64,000 bases of DNA from a bacterium (GTDB lineage: Bacteria > Patescibacteriota > Minisyncoccia > Phycocordibacterales > UBA6899): positions 12,214 through 76,213 of the forward strand of contig JAYTCK010000013.1 in the NCBI GenBank assembly GCA_043736515.1. The letters are read 5' to 3'. Of the stretch, positions 38,503 through 63,281 are shown piece by piece. A program made the translations under genes and the position numbers. The notes beneath the pieces are model-generated. The model had not been told where the DNA came from. It ran no database searches and saw nothing but the letters and a program-made list of their open reading frames with translations. How positions within the stretch are numbered: position 1 is the stretch's first letter; every line of letters starts with the position of its first letter.

Positions 38503-38562
38503 CGGCAGCCAACTTCTCCGAGGTACGACCTCCCAAGGCTGAGGTCGGACCTCAAGCTGCCT
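38503..38562. repeat. Palindromic REP-like repeat, family copy 1. A degenerate half copy precedes it at 38433-38462
   Basis: GCGGCAGCCAACTTCTCCGAGGTACGACCTCCCAAGGCTGAGGTCGGACCTCAAGCTGCC. Other copies at 59577-59630, 60111-60171 and in-CDS at 59441-59484. Confidence 0.8.
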
Positions 38563-56132: not shown

Positions 56133-58766
56133 ATGTTTACCTTCTTTAATCAATACAAAACAAAAACAGGCGCGCTGCTTTTTGCTCTCCAACTGCTCAT
56201 CGTTTTTGCCGTTCCTGTTGAGGTGGTGTATGCACAGGGCGCTCATCGCCCTGGAAATACTGTATGCCACGCCAGCCTCGTTGGTAGGGGGTGCTATCCG
56301 ACCATGGCAGCATGCACAGCCGCGGCAGGGGTGTGGACATGTAGAGACTCAATATCAACACAGAGTGGCGGAGAAGGAGTATCAACAGGGATAGACAGAC
56401 TAACTAAAAAGGGTGGGGAAATAGCGCTGAAAGGAACCCTGGCCATTGTCGGCACCGTGCTTGAATTCATTGCCAAATTCGTTGCAAAATTTGCTGGAAT
56501 GTTTATGCGCTCAATGGGCCATATTCTCGACATGGCGATCGATCGCACCATTAACGGCGAGACATACCGCGATTTGGCCGCGGTGCTTGTCGGCTGGACC
56601 GCCGTACGTGATTTTTCAAACATGTTGTTTATTTTTGTGCTGCTTTATATCGCCATTCAAACAATTCTTGGACTTGGGGGGGGCGGCGCGAAGCGTTTGC
56701 TTTCGCATGTCGTTATTGCGGCACTGCTCATCAACTTCAGCCTCTTTTTTACACAGGTCGTCATTGATGCCGGCAACGTACTTGCGATGGGATTTTGGAC
56801 TCAGATGACAACCAAACAGGGGGCGAGAGAGTGGCCGTCTGCTTCAGCTGCTTTTCTTGAGGGTTTTCGTATGCAAACGATCTTTGATACTAATGGGGAT
56901 ATCATGACGGAGACACCAGGCGGTCCGACCAATACTGACCCGATGGACAGAGCGATGATCTATGCGGGCGGTGCGGTCATGATGTTTGTCGCAGGATATG
57001 TCTTCCTTGCGGGTGCGGTCATAATGATCGTGCGTACGGTATGGCTGCTTATCCTTATGATTGGCTCTCCTTTTGCGTTTGTTTCTTTTGCTCTGCCCTC
57101 AAAAGGGGGATTTACAAGCTGGTGGTGGAGTAATCTCGTTAGCCAGGCTTTTGTCGCACCCGCATTTGTGTTCATGCTTTTTATTTGCTCAATCATCATT
57201 AAATCCCTCGACCTCAATATGCTCACCGGGGCCGTCAACGCAAAATTTGCGCCGGCGATTCTCGGGGGGGTAAATAATTACGCGATCTTCTACAACTTTT
57301 TTGTCATCATCATTTTACTGCTTGCATCGCTCACTGTTGCAAACAAAGTAAGCAGCGGCGCAGGAAAGATGGGGGGTGACATGGCAAAGAAATTTATTGG
57401 CAATGGCGCAGCTTATGGCTTTACCGGTATGGCTGCTGTTGGACGACAAACATATGGACGTAGCGCTGCAGCCTCACTCCGTGACAAAGACGGGAAGGAA
57501 ACAGAGTGGGCAAAGAAACAACGCCAACTTGTTACTGCGGGCGGCATGAAAGACGCGACTTTCCTAGATAAGAGCAAAGCACGTCTTGCAAACAGCCGAC
57601 TTTCTCTTGCAGAGAAAGGTGCCAGCGGAACATATGATATCCGCAATGCTCCAATGGGTGGCCTCGGCGTGACTGCAGCACTCGGGAAAGCAGGGGTAAG
57701 TACCGGGGCAGGAAGCAAGAAGAGCTACGAAACACACGGACAAGCACTGGGTAGCGTAACGGGTGGATACCGTGGAACCGCCAACGAGAAAGACCTCATT
57801 GCCACAGCAAAGGCACGATTCCCCGATGACCCTGCAGCACAAAAAGCCTACCTTGAAGGCCGCGGTGTATCACTCAGCGCTGACCGCAATAAAGATCTTA
57901 CTAAAGATCTTGACCGCAAAATTAAGACTGGCGACAAAAAAGAAATACTTAAAACTGAGCCTGACACCCACAATGCTCAGAAAAAGAAGCTTGCAGAGCT
58001 CAGAGCGTCCAATGCAAATGCGACTGAGATTGCAGAGGCGGAAAAATCGCTGGCCAGCACCGCCAAAACAATCGCTGACGCGCTCAAGGAACTTAATGCA
58101 AAAGAAGTTGCTGAACTTTCTCCCACCATACTCAACAAGAAGGTTGTTCAGGAGAATCTCAATGCACAGCAGCTTGGAGCAATCCTCGCTCACGACAAAG
58201 AGAAGGGCTATGATGACCCAACACTTCTTCCTGCAATTGGTGCAGCTGTGCTTGCTTCTCAGAATAATGGAGCGAAGAACTACATGAGGAAAGTTGCGGC
58301 TTCCCAGCCTGGTGCATTTGGTCTCGACTTCAAAAAAGATGTTGTTGATATCAAAAACGAATATGAGAGCCGAAAATCTGCAAACAAACTTGGAGAAATT
58401 CACACTGAGAGCGGTAAAACATACGAAGAACATCTCCGTGAGCAGTCTGCTAAATCGTTAGGATACATGGATCCAAAAGAAATTTCCGATTGGGATGAGG
58501 AGACGATCACGCATGAACTAGTGGCAAAGAGTTTGAATAAGCAACACCTGACTAACCTTGTAGCCAAGCAGAAAATTGAAGCGAGCTTCGACGACGAATT
58601 CTTTACCAAACTCGCTAATGAAATAAGCGCTGGAGGAAATGACGCCGCGAAAAAGTACATTAACACCGCAAAAGGCGACAACCCATTCTCCGGAAAAGGA
58701 GTGCAGGCCCCACCACCCACACCACCCTCAACAATTATCATTCCTCCGGGATCAAGGACAGCATAA
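56133..58766 (+). CDS. VirB6/TrbL-like polytopic membrane protein with a long Lys/Ala-rich low-complexity C-terminal extension
   Basis: Signal peptide plus at least 6 TM helices in residues 150-420. Adjacent to PrgI-like and VirB4 genes. Confidence 0.45.
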   Translation: MFTFFNQYKTKTGALLFALQLLIVFAVPVEVVYAQGAHRPGNTVCHASLVGRGCYPTMAACTAAAGVWTCRDSISTQSGGEGVSTGIDRLTKKGGEIALKGTLAIVGTVLEFIAKFVAKFAGMFMRSMGHILDMAIDRTINGETYRDLAAVLVGWTAVRDFSNMLFIFVLLYIAIQTILGLGGGGAKRLLSHVVIAALLINFSLFFTQVVIDAGNVLAMGFWTQMTTKQGAREWPSASAAFLEGFRMQTIFDTNGDIMTETPGGPTNTDPMDRAMIYAGGAVMMFVAGYVFLAGAVIMIVRTVWLLILMIGSPFAFVSFALPSKGGFTSWWWSNLVSQAFVAPAFVFMLFICSIIIKSLDLNMLTGAVNAKFAPAILGGVNNYAIFYNFFVIIILLLASLTVANKVSSGAGKMGGDMAKKFIGNGAAYGFTGMAAVGRQTYGRSAAASLRDKDGKETEWAKKQRQLVTAGGMKDATFLDKSKARLANSRLSLAEKGASGTYDIRNAPMGGLGVTAALGKAGVSTGAGSKKSYETHGQALGSVTGGYRGTANEKDLIATAKARFPDDPAAQKAYLEGRGVSLSADRNKDLTKDLDRKIKTGDKKEILKTEPDTHNAQKKKLAELRASNANATEIAEAEKSLASTAKTIADALKELNAKEVAELSPTILNKKVVQENLNAQQLGAILAHDKEKGYDDPTLLPAIGAAVLASQNNGAKNYMRKVAASQPGAFGLDFKKDVVDIKNEYESRKSANKLGEIHTESGKTYEEHLREQSAKSLGYMDPKEISDWDEETITHELVAKSLNKQHLTNLVAKQKIEASFDDEFFTKLANEISAGGNDAAKKYINTAKGDNPFSGKGVQAPPPTPPSTIIIPPGSRTA

Positions 58767-58784
58767 GATTGGTATTACGTAATT

Positions 58785-59552
58785 ATGGCAACAGATTTTA
58801 ACAACCTTCCTCAAGCAATAAAAGACTTACTTCTCTCCGAGAAGCTTGTTGATGACGTTGAAGGTATCGCTAAGCATCATGGGCTACGCCCTGAGGAATA
58901 TGGCTTGCTCCTTCGTGCGACTACTCAACTCCTTGAGGGCAACATGCCCGCAACAGAATACATGGCTTCTCTTGTTGGTGAATTAGATCTCTCTCGTGAA
59001 AAAGCTGCGCTTGTGGCTCAGGACATTAATCAGAATATTTTTAACCCTGTCAAAGAAGAGCTGAAGCAAGTTCATGCAGTAAATGGAGCGAAAGATGGGG
59101 TTACACCACCACAACCTCTCCCTAAGGTCGCATCGAGTTCACACCTCTCCTCAAATCCTGTTGCTACAGCAACACCGGCACCTCTTCCCAAGCTTTCCGA
59201 AATTGCAGCCGCCTACACCGGCAAAACGGAAAAGCCAATGCCGCCCCAAAGTCCTCCGTTATCTGCCCCCTCCCAAAGTATTTTTGAGCAGAAAATGGGG
59301 GGGACATTTCGCATGAAAAGCGATACCACAAGTCACGCCGGGAGTGTGCCGCCACAGGGGGCAGCTAACTTCACCACAGGAGTACTTCCAAATTTCAGTA
59401 CTCGAGGACTCGATGAAATTTCTGGTCGCTCCGAGGTACGACCACCCAAAGCTGAGGTCGGACCCCAGTCTGCCCCCACATCGTCTAGTGCTGTTATGCC
59501 GAACCCCGGCACGTCATCCAAGGTTGACCCGTACCGAGAAGCGACAGGCTAA
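58785..59552 (+). CDS. Hypothetical Pro/Ser-rich protein. Its C-terminus is encoded by a REP-like repeat copy
   Basis: ORF only. The repeat at 59441-59484 encodes ...RSEVRPPKAEVGPQSA. Confidence 0.35.
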   Translation: MATDFNNLPQAIKDLLLSEKLVDDVEGIAKHHGLRPEEYGLLLRATTQLLEGNMPATEYMASLVGELDLSREKAALVAQDINQNIFNPVKEELKQVHAVNGAKDGVTPPQPLPKVASSSHLSSNPVATATPAPLPKLSEIAAAYTGKTEKPMPPQSPPLSAPSQSIFEQKMGGTFRMKSDTTSHAGSVPPQGAANFTTGVLPNFSTRGLDEISGRSEVRPPKAEVGPQSAPTSSSAVMPNPGTSSKVDPYREATG

Positions 59553-59576: not shown

Positions 59577-59630
59577 CAGCCAACTCCTTCGAGGTCCGAC
59601 CTTTCAAAGCCAAGGTCGGACCTCAGGCTG
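59577..59630. repeat. Palindromic REP-like repeat, family copy (variant)
   Basis: CAGCCAACTCCTTCGAGGTCCGACCTTTCAAAGCCAAGGTCGGACCTCAGGCTG. Confidence 0.75.
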
Positions 59631-60110: not shown

Positions 60111-60171
60111 GCGGCAGCCAGCTTCTCCGAGGTCCGACCTCCCAAAGCTGAGGTCGGACCTCGGGCTGCCG
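60111..60171. repeat. Palindromic REP-like repeat, family copy
   Basis: GCGGCAGCCAGCTTCTCCGAGGTCCGACCTCCCAAAGCTGAGGTCGGACCTCGGGCTGCCG. Confidence 0.8.
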
Positions 60172-60237: not shown

Positions 60238-60915
60238 TTGATTTATACTGTAGATATGGCAATTCCTGGAAGACCAACACAAGAGTTCATACCAATCAAA
60301 GATGTGCGGAATGGTGTGATCGTGCTCAACAACGGCGACCTTCGCATGATGCTTATGACATCATCGCTCAACTTTGGACTCAAATCCTCAGATGAACAAA
60401 CAGCGATCATCATGCAATTTCAGGATGCCCTCAATTCGCTGGAATTTCCCATCCAGATATATATTCAATCAAAGCGACTTGATATCCGTCCGTATCTCAA
60501 GCTTCTTGAAGAGCGCGAAAAAGTGCAGTTAGTCGATGCTATGAAAATTCAAGTCCATGAATACATCGCCTTCATTAGCGACTTCACGAGTCACACGAAC
60601 ATCATGTCAAAAACCTTTTTTATTGTTGTGCCTTATTCATCAGGACCCAAGATAGCAGGAGAGAAAGGAGGAGGAGGCCTGCTGTCGGGAATTTTAGGAG
60701 GTGGCGCCAATGATCCAAAGAAGAAACTCACTCAGGCAGAGCAGCAAAGTTTTGAGGAGGCGCGCGTACAGCTTGAACAGCGCGCTTCGATAGTTGAGCA
60801 AGGTCTTTCACGCTGCGGTATTCGTACGACACGGCTTGGGACAGAGGAGATCGTGGAACTTTTTTATAAGAAATTCAACCCCGGGGAGCTTGAAGCGGGG
60901 ATAGCAACACCCTAA
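60238..60915 (+). CDS. VirB4-like T4SS ATPase, N-terminal domain (separate ORF)
   Basis: Ends at TAA 60913-60915. The next ORF starts 5 nt later in another frame. Confidence 0.55.
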   Translation: MIYTVDMAIPGRPTQEFIPIKDVRNGVIVLNNGDLRMMLMTSSLNFGLKSSDEQTAIIMQFQDALNSLEFPIQIYIQSKRLDIRPYLKLLEEREKVQLVDAMKIQVHEYIAFISDFTSHTNIMSKTFFIVVPYSSGPKIAGEKGGGGLLSGILGGGANDPKKKLTQAEQQSFEEARVQLEQRASIVEQGLSRCGIRTTRLGTEEIVELFYKKFNPGELEAGIATP

Positions 60916-60919
60916 TCTT

Positions 60920-62713
60920 ATGGCAGACTACAACCTGATGAATACTGGGGGAGTACTCCCAACCGACCTTTATCAAGCAACAAACCTTGATATGAAGGAT
61001 ATTCTTGCGCCGGCGGCAATTAAGATTACCCCGAATGAAATGTATGTGGGTGGAAAAATGCTCCGCACGTTTTTTGTCATTTCGTATCCACGCTACCTTT
61101 CTCAGGACTGGTTTACTCCTGTCATTAACCTCGACAAGGTCTACGATGTGTCTATCATGATTCATCCCGTTGAGACCGAGCTTGCGCTCCGCACATTTCA
61201 GAAAAAAGTTGCCGAGGTGCAGAGTCAAATCAATGAACGTGAGCGCAAGGGATTTGTGCGCGATCCTATTCTTGATATTGCCTATCAAGATCTTGAGGAC
61301 TTGCGTGACAAACTGCAGCAGGCACAAGAGCGTCTGTTTGATGTGGGTATCTATATCACCGTCTATGCAAATGAGAAAAACGAACTCGACAGAGCGGAAA
61401 GTGAGCTAAAAAGCATTCTTGACTCAAAGCTCGTCTATGTAAAGCCCGCTATCTTCCAGCAAGGAGAGGGGTACCGCAGTGTACTTCCGCTTATGACCGA
61501 CGAGCTTGAGGTGCACTACAAATTGAACTCCGCTCCGCTCTCTTCAATATTTCCTTTTGTATCCTTTGACCTCACCAGCGACAAAGGAATTCTTTGGGGA
61601 CTGAACCGCCACAATGCATCACTCATTCTCTTTGATAGATTTTCGATGCCGAACTACAACTCGGTGACCTTTGCAGTATCCGGCTCAGGAAAATCATATA
61701 CCACGAAGCTTGAGATCTTGCGTACGCTTATGTTTGACGCTGATGTGATCGTTATCGATCCTGAACAGGAGTACCAATTCCTTGCCGAAGCAACTGGTGG
61801 GAGATATTTTAATATTTCACTTACGTCTGAACACCACATCAATCCTTTTGATCTTCCTGTTCCGCGTGATGATGAGTCGCCGGCGGATGTGCTGCGTTCA
61901 AACATCATTTTCTTGGTGGGACTTTTCCGCATTATGTTGGGAGGCCTTACTCCGGAAGAGGACGGTATTATCGATCGAGCTATCTCGGAAACGTATGCAT
62001 TAAAGGACATAACTCCTGAGGCAAACTTCCTCGATATTGAGCCGCCGCTCATTTCAGACTTCGAACTCGTCTTATCGGGCATGGAGGGAACGCAATCGCT
62101 ACTCCTTCGTCTTGAGAAATACACCCGAGGTACGTGGGCTGGATTCTTGAACAAACCCACAAATATCGATATAAGTAAGCGTTTTACGGTATTTTCCGTC
62201 CGCAACATGGAAGATGAGCTCAAGCCCGTTGCTGTCTATATCGTTACGCATCATATTTGGACGGCAATCAGAAAAGAGCTTCGTAAACGCCTCCTTGTTG
62301 TAGACGAGGCCTGGTGGATGATGAAATCCGAAGATACTGCATCATTTCTCTTTAGCCTCGCCAAGCGCGGTCGTAAGTACTATTTGGGCATCTCGACCAT
62401 CACGCAAGACGTGAACGACTTTCTTCGCTCACCCTACGGCCTGCCCATTCTCACCAATTCATCTATTCAGCTTCTGCTTAAGCAGTCGCCCACCTCTATC
62501 GACCTCGTGCAGCAGACATTCCACCTTACGGACGAAGAAAAATTCCTTTTACTTGAATCATCCGTTGGTGAGGGGCTCTTCTTTGCCGGATTGAAGCATG
62601 TGGCCATTAAAGTGCACGCCTCCTATATCGAAGACCAGATCGTGAGCTCTGACCCGGCCCAGCTCCTCTCAATTGCGAAGGCAAAGCAAGACCTGAAAGA
62701 TGCACAAGGTTAA
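60920..62713 (+). CDS. VirB4/TrsE-like T4SS ATPase, C-terminal ATPase domain
   Basis: Walker A FAVSGSGKSYTTK. Walker B LLVVDEAWWMM. Confidence 0.8.
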   Translation: MADYNLMNTGGVLPTDLYQATNLDMKDILAPAAIKITPNEMYVGGKMLRTFFVISYPRYLSQDWFTPVINLDKVYDVSIMIHPVETELALRTFQKKVAEVQSQINERERKGFVRDPILDIAYQDLEDLRDKLQQAQERLFDVGIYITVYANEKNELDRAESELKSILDSKLVYVKPAIFQQGEGYRSVLPLMTDELEVHYKLNSAPLSSIFPFVSFDLTSDKGILWGLNRHNASLILFDRFSMPNYNSVTFAVSGSGKSYTTKLEILRTLMFDADVIVIDPEQEYQFLAEATGGRYFNISLTSEHHINPFDLPVPRDDESPADVLRSNIIFLVGLFRIMLGGLTPEEDGIIDRAISETYALKDITPEANFLDIEPPLISDFELVLSGMEGTQSLLLRLEKYTRGTWAGFLNKPTNIDISKRFTVFSVRNMEDELKPVAVYIVTHHIWTAIRKELRKRLLVVDEAWWMMKSEDTASFLFSLAKRGRKYYLGISTITQDVNDFLRSPYGLPILTNSSIQLLLKQSPTSIDLVQQTFHLTDEEKFLLLESSVGEGLFFAGLKHVAIKVHASYIEDQIVSSDPAQLLSIAKAKQDLKDAQG

Positions 62714-62813: not shown

Positions 62814-63281
62814 ATGGCTATTTCCACTTTAAACTCTCAGGGTTACCAAGTTACAGAGTCAGCAAAAAAGCCAAGTGAGAAGAATAAGACAAATTTACTC
62901 TTTTTTTTCTTAGTATTAGGATTGGCAATTACAAAAGACCTTATTGATATTATCAGCCATGCGCTTATTGCGGTGGGTATGGGGCTTACTGCAACCATGC
63001 TTGGAGCTGTGGTAGGAATACCGCTTGTGGCCGTGTCATGGGTAGTGACTTTTGTTTTCGGGCTTTTTGTAAACTTCACCATTGCAGCCTACTTCTTTTC
63101 AACGGGACATGGGATAGGCCGCCGCTTGGCGATACAGAGTATTGGATTTATAATGGAGTTAGTGCCTTACGTCAGTTTGCTCCCACTCACGACTATCACT
63201 TTTGTCATCGCACATTTCCTCGGCAAGGTGCCGAATCCCACCAAAGTAATACAGTCTGCTCGAAAGCTTGCTCATATTTGA
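62814..63281 (+). CDS. Hypothetical polytopic membrane protein (possible T4SS component)
   Basis: 3-4 TM helices. TATAAT-like box upstream at ~62796. Confidence 0.35.
   Translation: MAISTLNSQGYQVTESAKKPSEKNKTNLLFFFLVLGLAITKDLIDIISHALIAVGMGLTATMLGAVVGIPLVAVSWVVTFVFGLFVNFTIAAYFFSTGHGIGRRLAIQSIGFIMELVPYVSLLPLTTITFVIAHFLGKVPNPTKVIQSARKLAHI

Follow-up and report, generated by a model that had tools for sequence, protein, structure and literature searches.

A probable two-gene VirB4 motor ATPase with a detached, TrsD-like N-terminal module in a chromosomal patescibacterial type IV secretion system

The survey of Patescibacteria by Quinonero-Coronel et al. (2025, Microb Genom, PMC12102498), in the sections drawn on here, identifies TrsD, a remote homologue of the N-terminus of the VirB4 ATPase, as the most abundant component of type IV secretion systems (T4SS) detected in these bacteria, with 2272 homologues, 1664 of which are associated with virB4. 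The same sections list as essential the TrsD homologue that adjoins virB4 in Southlakia epibionticum ML1, note ksgA near virB4, describe proteins with Peptidase_M23 and LysM domains as candidates for VirB1, and report that the TrsD homologues of Gracilibacteria do not adjoin virB4 (PMC12102498). Here we analyse a pair of adjacent open reading frames (ORFs), ORF1 and ORF2, in a 64,000-nt stretch of contig JAYTCK010000013.1 from assembly GCA_043736515.1 (hereinafter, the window). We consider it very probable that this pair is a genuine, conserved two-gene VirB4 motor ATPase of a chromosomal, monoderm-type T4SS, similar to the mating pair formation class FATA (MPF-FATA), in a member of the Patescibacteria (Lloydbacteria/Paceibacteria-like). 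The product of ORF1 is a soluble polypeptide of its own that corresponds to the first ~200 residues of the VirB4 N-terminal domain, and the rest of this domain is encoded by the TrsE/TraE-like ORF2 together with the Walker A/B ATPase domain.

The pair in the window is one more instance of the published arrangement and differs from it in nothing substantive. Judging by the record names of the homologues, both belong to the same phylum-level clade; in both, a PrgI/VirB3 gene lies upstream and a TrsD-like gene directly upstream of virB4, and the chromosomal context described in the sections consulted, in which KsgA, UvrD and a Peptidase_M23/LysM protein are close by (PMC12102498), is found in the window as well. 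What is added here is the mapping of the two genes as a colinear fission, the variable junction, the break point shared with the pairs of the pSK41 and Bacillus types, and a clade of fused forms in Candidatus Colwellbacteria, which are refinements and not a new kind of system; the fission mapping, the variable junction and the fused Colwellbacteria form are not spelled out in those sections of PMC12102498.

Close counterparts are also found on plasmids of Bacillota. In staphylococcal pSK41, trsC, which encodes a VirB3-like protein, is followed by trsD (227 aa, 'TrsD/TraD family') and trsE (672 aa, DUF87), and in a Bacillus cereus plasmid, a 216-aa gene, the product of which matches the TrsD model (E-value 3.5e-19) and positions 2-173 of the CD1110 VirB4 profile, overlaps the start of traE (617 aa). 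The gene order in trsC-trsD-trsE of pSK41/pGO1 and in the B. cereus pair, which belong to the pGO1 subclass of MPF-FATA, is the same as here, with the PrgI gene of the window in the position of trsC of pSK41, and the sizes are alike, a TrsD of ~220 aa followed by a VirB4-like ATPase of ~600-670 aa. The differences are that TrsE, with 672 aa, is longer than ORF2, with 597 aa, that sequence identity to the Bacillota pairs is very low, and that the pSK41 and Bacillus systems serve conjugation, are carried on plasmids and include a relaxase and a coupling protein, whereas the system in the window is chromosomal. On the CD1110 profile, TraE of B. cereus covers positions 169-735 and TrsE of pSK41 covers positions 183-730; because TrsE, TraE and ORF2 all begin at position 169-183 of this profile, the Bacillota pairs are split at the same VirB4 position as the pair in the window. 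In a profile comparison with hhalign, the ORF1 family matches the TrsD-like protein of B. cereus (98.8% probability, E-value 8e-17), and ORF1 is found in the setting that is typical of the TrsD/TraD family, its gene, for a protein of ~200-230 aa, lying between those of a VirB3-like protein and of a VirB4-like ATPase from which the first ~180 profile positions are missing.

The original prediction, made from the sequence of the window alone, had described an N-terminal-domain ORF and a Walker A/B ATPase ORF, adjacent, in different frames and together approximating a normal VirB4 length, and this description is borne out (Table 1). The affinity of ORF1 to the known TrsD/TraC-like (PF26593) family had gone unrecognised in that prediction. 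The letters at the junction are ...aca ccc TAA tctt ATG gca..., with the ORF1 stop codon TAA at 60913-60915, and the frame of ORF2 is one base further along than that of ORF1. The summed length of the two products (219 + 597 = 816 aa) is close to that of the single-chain VirB4 proteins of the CD1110 type from Clostridium botulinum (797 aa) and of TrwK (823 aa). Both Walker motifs are intact. Of the boundaries proposed for ORF1, the stop holds and the start probably does not. The reading in the ORF table (60238..60915 on the plus strand, 225 aa) begins with a TTG codon; the true start is almost certainly the ATG at 60256, 18 nt downstream, because a database protein that is identical over its full length has 219 aa and the aligned homologues begin with MA/MP-x-PGKPTQ. 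The C-terminus of ORF1 is conserved (...FNPGELE) and is followed by the stop codon. A Gly/Lys-rich loop of low complexity at aa ~128-160 (60637-60735), variable in length and modelled with a predicted local distance difference test (pLDDT) score below 50, is the sole poorly conserved part of the otherwise highly conserved ORF1. In ORF2, aa ~1-220 correspond to the second half of the VirB4 N-terminal domain and aa ~221-575 to the C-terminal RecA-like ATPase domain; its Pfam matches are P-loop_TraG (87.2 bits against a cutoff of 25.8, E-value 1.2e-24), AAA_10 and DUF87, and in a search of the PDB, aa 221-574 align with the crystal structure of a VirB4 C-terminal domain, that of Thermoanaerobacter pseudethanolicus (4ag5, E-value 1.9e-36). 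The small protein encoded immediately upstream of ORF1 matches the PrgI family PF12666 (29.8 bits, cutoff 27; E-value 9e-07). Scans for promoter and terminator consensus motifs around the junction yielded nothing above the shuffled expectation.

ORF1 matches N-terminal positions of three VirB4 models, in agreement with its initial description as an N-terminal-domain ORF: aa 9-122 match positions 2-116 of the CD1110 VirB4 model (NF045971, 752 positions; E-value 2.9e-6), aa 8-125 match positions 104-233 of VirB4_plasma (E-value 5.4e-9), and aa 6-79 match positions 6-81 of TIGR00929 (E-value 1.3e-3). The ORF2 polypeptide does not contain a complete VirB4 N-terminal domain, its aa 19-562 matching only positions 181-733 of NF045971 (358.5 bits against a cutoff of 325, E-value 7e-107). 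Because ORF1 falls on positions 2-116 and ORF2 on positions 181-733 of the same profile, the two are colinear, non-overlapping parts of one VirB4. The ORF1 family, represented by a diverse alignment of 45 sequences (A2), also matches residues 23-200 of the 797-aa single-chain VirB4 from C. botulinum pCDC3875 in hhalign (92% probability, E-value 6e-7); a sequence search of the PDB with ORF1 gave no matches. Together, ORF1 and ORF2 thus cover colinearly the whole profile of single-chain VirB4, such as the CD1110 family of Clostridia and TrwK of R388 (PDB 7o41 and 8rtd), the ATPase domain of which is homologous to that of ORF2. Unlike in the single-chain proteins, the first ~200 residues are here a separate polypeptide, and the diderm outer-membrane partners are absent.

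Fused forms of the two modules are encoded in Candidatus Colwellbacteria. In the 797-aa protein P0367, which is present on three contigs, aa 8-213 match aa 8-213 of ORF1 with 34% identity and aa 230-796 match aa 25-590 of ORF2 with 55% identity (BLASTP), and the fused proteins in general (for example, MBI3088895.1, 797 aa) contain both modules in the same order and in one copy each. These proteins are encoded in one reading frame, with a 16-aa linker in place of the stop, the spacer and the start of the window. In a joint alignment, the junction of the window corresponds to a linker that varies in length (P0367, 16 aa; P0389, ~100 aa); before it, the first module ends in the conserved ...ELFYxxFNPGE, and after it, the second module has a likewise conserved start. 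As the break sits in a variable linker between conserved module ends, no residues are missing at the junction, a point that had been raised as a check by alignment to single-ORF forms. Among the best 120 matches to P0367, 118 are 775-807 aa long, so that the fused state is clade-wide (P0367 and P0393-P0511, from Candidatus Colwellbacteria and relatives); the two short matches are P0411 (600 aa) and P0507 (601 aa). P0411 was considered as a recent fission and rejected since the gene contains a 100-N scaffold gap (L084:1282-1775). Modelled with AlphaFold (pLDDT 73.2), the fused protein superimposes on full-length TrwK/VirB4 of R388 over ~800-870 columns with a template modelling (TM) score of 0.64 (E-value 3e-27). 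The fused state of Colwellbacteria would represent either a fusion or the retention of an ancestral single chain.

Outside this clade, the split is the rule among the relatives of the pair. ORF1 has 4398 homologues at E <= 1e-3, and the best 120 of these 4398 are all stand-alone proteins of 207-234 aa that carry PF26593, the named ones being from Lloydbacteria, Paceibacterota or Parcubacteria; the best 120 homologues of ORF2 are all 558-648 aa long. An exhaustive HMMER search with ORF1 against 1.84 billion cluster representatives (50% clustering) retrieved 2171 relatives, and only 2 of the 150 best of these are longer than 700 aa. Because each ORF has thousands of homologues, the two-ORF pattern is not due to chance. 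We further fetched 80 species-level loci from GTDB genomes with a closer alignment (A1) and measured the junctions by script; after the exclusion of two loci that end too early and one locus with no candidate ATG, 77 loci of Patescibacteria species were available. In all 77, the genes are adjacent and separate, the ORF1 homologue being closed by a stop codon and that of ORF2 opened by its own ATG, which answers the question whether relatives have the same split. The position of the split is the same in every close relative, down to ~54% identity of ORF1. The spacer is -4 to 565 nt long (median 7 nt), measuring 0-16 nt in 59 loci and -4 nt, that is, an ATGA overlap, in six, and the relative frame is 0, +1 and +2 in 27, 23 and 27 loci, respectively.

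The long spacers between the TrsD-like gene and virB4 (60-565 nt; L024, L038, L044, L046, L052 and L057) hold short direct or inverted repeats, and the 565-nt spacer of L057 seems to contain an inserted small ORF; these sequences show that the gene pair tolerates insertions between its members.

Both genes are under strong purifying selection. The nonsynonymous distance (dN) is 0.16-0.21 for ORF1 and 0.07-0.10 for ORF2, and the ratio of dN to the synonymous distance (dS), omega, is below 0.1 where it could be computed; because dS is saturated in nearly all pairs, only the dN values and two omega values are usable. Among different species of Lloydbacteria and Paceibacterota, amino acid identity is 85-90% for ORF2 and 66-80% for ORF1, an unusually high conservation of the VirB4 core for a fast-evolving phylum.

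The junction itself is reproducible. Two independent assemblies from other sequencing runs, L085 (SRR23617149) and L086 (SRR23617151), both contain the exact 125-mer that spans it; L085 is identical to the window over 3694 nt (100% identity), and L086, in which the gene order PrgI, TraC-like, VirB4 recurs, is 99.9% identical, with 4 single-nucleotide polymorphisms and no indel.

Besides a genuine two-gene VirB4, which the conserved split and the colinear mapping favour, the original prediction had entertained programmed frameshifting and a recent inactivating frameshift that would silence the T4SS, and had pointed to the possibility of an assembly error. A fused, full-length VirB4 would result if ribosomes shifted to the +1 frame in a programmed manner where ORF1 ends (aca-CCC-UAA-u), a recoding of the prfB type. 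Slippage of tRNA-Pro at CCC-N is a known mechanism of +1 frameshifting, and in the window ORF2 is indeed in the +1 frame, a CCC codon directly precedes the stop, and the frame of ORF2 is open from 60905, which leaves an overlap of 11 nt in which a shift could occur. Among the 77 relatives, however, the last sense codons and the stop codons vary, and neither a slippery site nor a stimulatory Shine-Dalgarno motif is conserved; in 27 loci the two genes are in frame and nevertheless separated by a stop, the spacers extend to 565 nt, and of the 78 relatives in which both genes are present, 77 have an ORF2 homologue with its own ATG, aligned with the conserved N-terminus. We find this explanation scarcely credible. 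A pseudogenising frameshift or a 1-nt assembly or sequencing error that broke an ordinary single-ORF VirB4 would be in keeping with the single chain being the textbook form of VirB4, with the existence of fused relatives in Colwellbacteria, and with the fact that one split within the fused clade, that of P0411, did prove to be an artefact of a scaffold gap. Against such a lesion or error stand the identical position of the split in all close relatives, the purifying selection on both parts, the exact junction in two independent assemblies, one of them a variant with 4 substitutions, the proper ATG of ORF2 and the conserved C-terminus of ORF1 ahead of its stop; its probability is practically negligible. 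Taken together, the variable spacers and the occurrence of all three frames in the 77 loci speak against a frameshift mutation, an assembly error and a programmed frameshift site alike. Because the split reflects a genuine, conserved two-gene VirB4, the T4SS is expected to be functional, and the concern that it might be silenced is unfounded.

Alternatively, ORF1 could be not the missing piece of ORF2 but an independent paralogue of the N-terminal VirB4 region that functions on its own, for example, as a regulator or a chaperone. The gracilibacterial TrsD homologues that do not adjoin virB4 in the sections of PMC12102498 used here are compatible with this possibility, as is the combined length of TrsD and TrsE of pSK41 (899 aa), which exceeds that of a normal VirB4. 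ORF2 and TrsE/TraE, however, begin at VirB4 position ~170-183 and lack exactly the part that is matched by ORF1 and TrsD (2-116 and 2-173, respectively); furthermore, the fused Colwellbacteria proteins contain a single copy of each module in order and are modelled with a fold like that of full-length TrwK, and no similarity between ORF1 and ORF2 was detected with BLASTP. An independent paralogue is, accordingly, highly unlikely.

Several observations weigh against the interpretation of ORF1 and ORF2 as a two-gene VirB4 or bear on the naming of ORF1. The match between the ORF1 family and TrsD of pSK41 is weak (hhalign, 68% probability, E-value 5e-5), and on the NCBIfam TrsD model (NF041427), ORF1 scores 12.7 bits (E-value 0.081), below the 200-bit cutoff; for comparison, TrsD of pSK41 scores 227.6 bits, the B. 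cereus protein 69.4 bits and the N-terminus of P0367 32.3 bits. PF26593 is listed in precomputed Pfam data for P0001, a protein identical to ORF1, and for the 219-aa gene of L086; it comes from these precomputed annotations only, a Pfam-A scan of ORF1 itself giving no match even at E-values up to 10. Because the NF041427 score is far below the cutoff and the match to TrsD of pSK41 is weak, ORF1 is best designated TrsD-like, or TraC-like in the terms of Pfam (PF26593), and not a certified member of NF041427. When ORF1 is modelled on its own with AlphaFold from a shallow alignment, the result is mediocre (pLDDT 60.7); the top 13 PDB matches of this model in Foldseek are all TrwK/VirB4, at TM scores of ~0.4, which is supportive only, and as the Foldseek output comes with no residue ranges, the placement of ORF1 on TrwK follows from the mapping of sequence profiles. 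The binding of ORF1 to ORF2 and the contact between ORF1 and PrgI are inferred from the R388 structure and the fused forms. Finally, in 77 of 78 loci, the window included, no Shine-Dalgarno-like 4-mer is present in the 20 nt upstream of the ATG of the ORF2 homologue.

Under the two-gene interpretation, one transcript would give rise to two polypeptides, and translation of ORF2 would begin at its own ATG. The usual spacing of 1-16 nt or ATGA overlap suggests that translation of ORF1 and ORF2 may be coupled; no Shine-Dalgarno-like motif precedes ORF2, and we infer such coupling from the spacing. The start of ORF1 likewise is not preceded by a Shine-Dalgarno motif, and this lineage seems to initiate translation here without one. 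The two products would then reassemble non-covalently into a VirB4-like subunit, in which the ORF1 module would supply the membrane-proximal surface that binds PrgI/VirB3 and contacts between VirB4 subunits, and the ORF2 hexamer would supply ATP hydrolysis. In the R388 structure, VirB3 wraps around the VirB4 N-terminal domain (residues 15-400), and the contacts within the VirB4 dimer, and some of those within the hexamer, are made through this domain (PMC9259494).

The surroundings of the pair contain several further features (Table 1). A GC-rich palindromic repeat, GAGGTCCGACCTC-N8-GAGGTCGGACCTC, recurs in spacers between genes of the T4SS cluster and at other sites; 10 matches were counted where 0.03 would be expected. 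Between prgI and ORF1, its copy folds into a hairpin of ~22 bp within a 160-nt spacer, the whole of which has a folding energy of -55 kcal/mol (z -4.6); because the hairpin has no T-tail, this copy resembles a repetitive extragenic palindromic (REP) element or a miniature inverted-repeat transposable element (MITE) more than a terminator. In the relative L001, a similar aaggtccgacctt hairpin is located inside an 86-nt spacer between the TrsD-like gene and virB4. Upstream of prgI, two genes encode an 877-aa polytopic membrane protein and a 255-aa protein, neither of which has a Pfam or NCBIfam match; the 877-aa protein is a candidate for a divergent VirB6-like channel protein. The 155-aa multi-transmembrane protein encoded directly after virB4, a possible further component of the T4SS, is kept in the same position in L085 and L086 and is followed in L085 by genes for proteins of 331 aa and 473 aa, beyond the end of the window.

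Table 1. Features of the two-gene VirB4 locus and its surroundings (positions in the window)
Feature	Position	Strand	Basis or location
ORF1, TrsD-like/'TraC-like' (PF26593), detached VirB4 N-terminal module, 219 aa	60256..60915	+	homologue and profile matches
Spacer tctt, 4 nt, ORF1 stop to ORF2 ATG	60916..60919	+	sequence
ORF2, VirB4/TrsE-type T4SS ATPase, 597 aa	60920..62713	+	NF045971, 4ag5 and P-loop_TraG matches
Walker A, AVSGSGKS, ORF2 aa 252-259	61673..61696	+	translation; aligns with P-loop of 4ag5
Walker B, LLVVDE, ORF2 aa 458-463	62291..62308	+	aligns with VLVVDEAW of 4ag5
Small membrane protein of the PrgI family (VirB3-like), 143 aa	59664..60095	+	Pfam PF12666
Palindromic repeat, copies	60129-60162, 59591-59624, 38520-38553		
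Palindromic repeat, half-site	59454-59466		
Polytopic membrane protein, 877 aa, long Lys/Ala-rich C-terminal half	56133-58766		upstream of prgI
Pro/Ser-rich protein, 255 aa	58785-59552		upstream of prgI
Multi-transmembrane protein, 155 aa, no family matches	62814-63281		directly after virB4

A more speculative reading, which we regard as unlikely, is that the first ~200 residues of VirB4 are an autonomous module that has been repeatedly detached and re-attached at one linker, and that its separate encoding allows separate dosing or regulation, so that it would not be a simple 1:1 part of VirB4. The module is split off in most Patescibacteria and in plasmids of the pSK41 and Bacillus types, and fused in Colwellbacteria and in elements of the CD1110 type. 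If this reading were true, the module could be added to the VirB3-bound 'central' VirB4 subunits and to no others, or could gate the assembly of an essential T4SS.

For a genuine two-gene VirB4, the consequence for annotation is that the junction should not be flagged as a frameshift, a pseudogene or a recoding site, and that the T4SS should be scored as intact. The locus in Southlakia epibionticum ML1 is reportedly among those found to be essential by Wang and colleagues (Wang et al., in 2023). Within the VirB4 N-terminal domain, the naturally occurring split and fused variants delimit a domain boundary that could be used in structural and genetic work on the essential T4SS of Patescibacteria.

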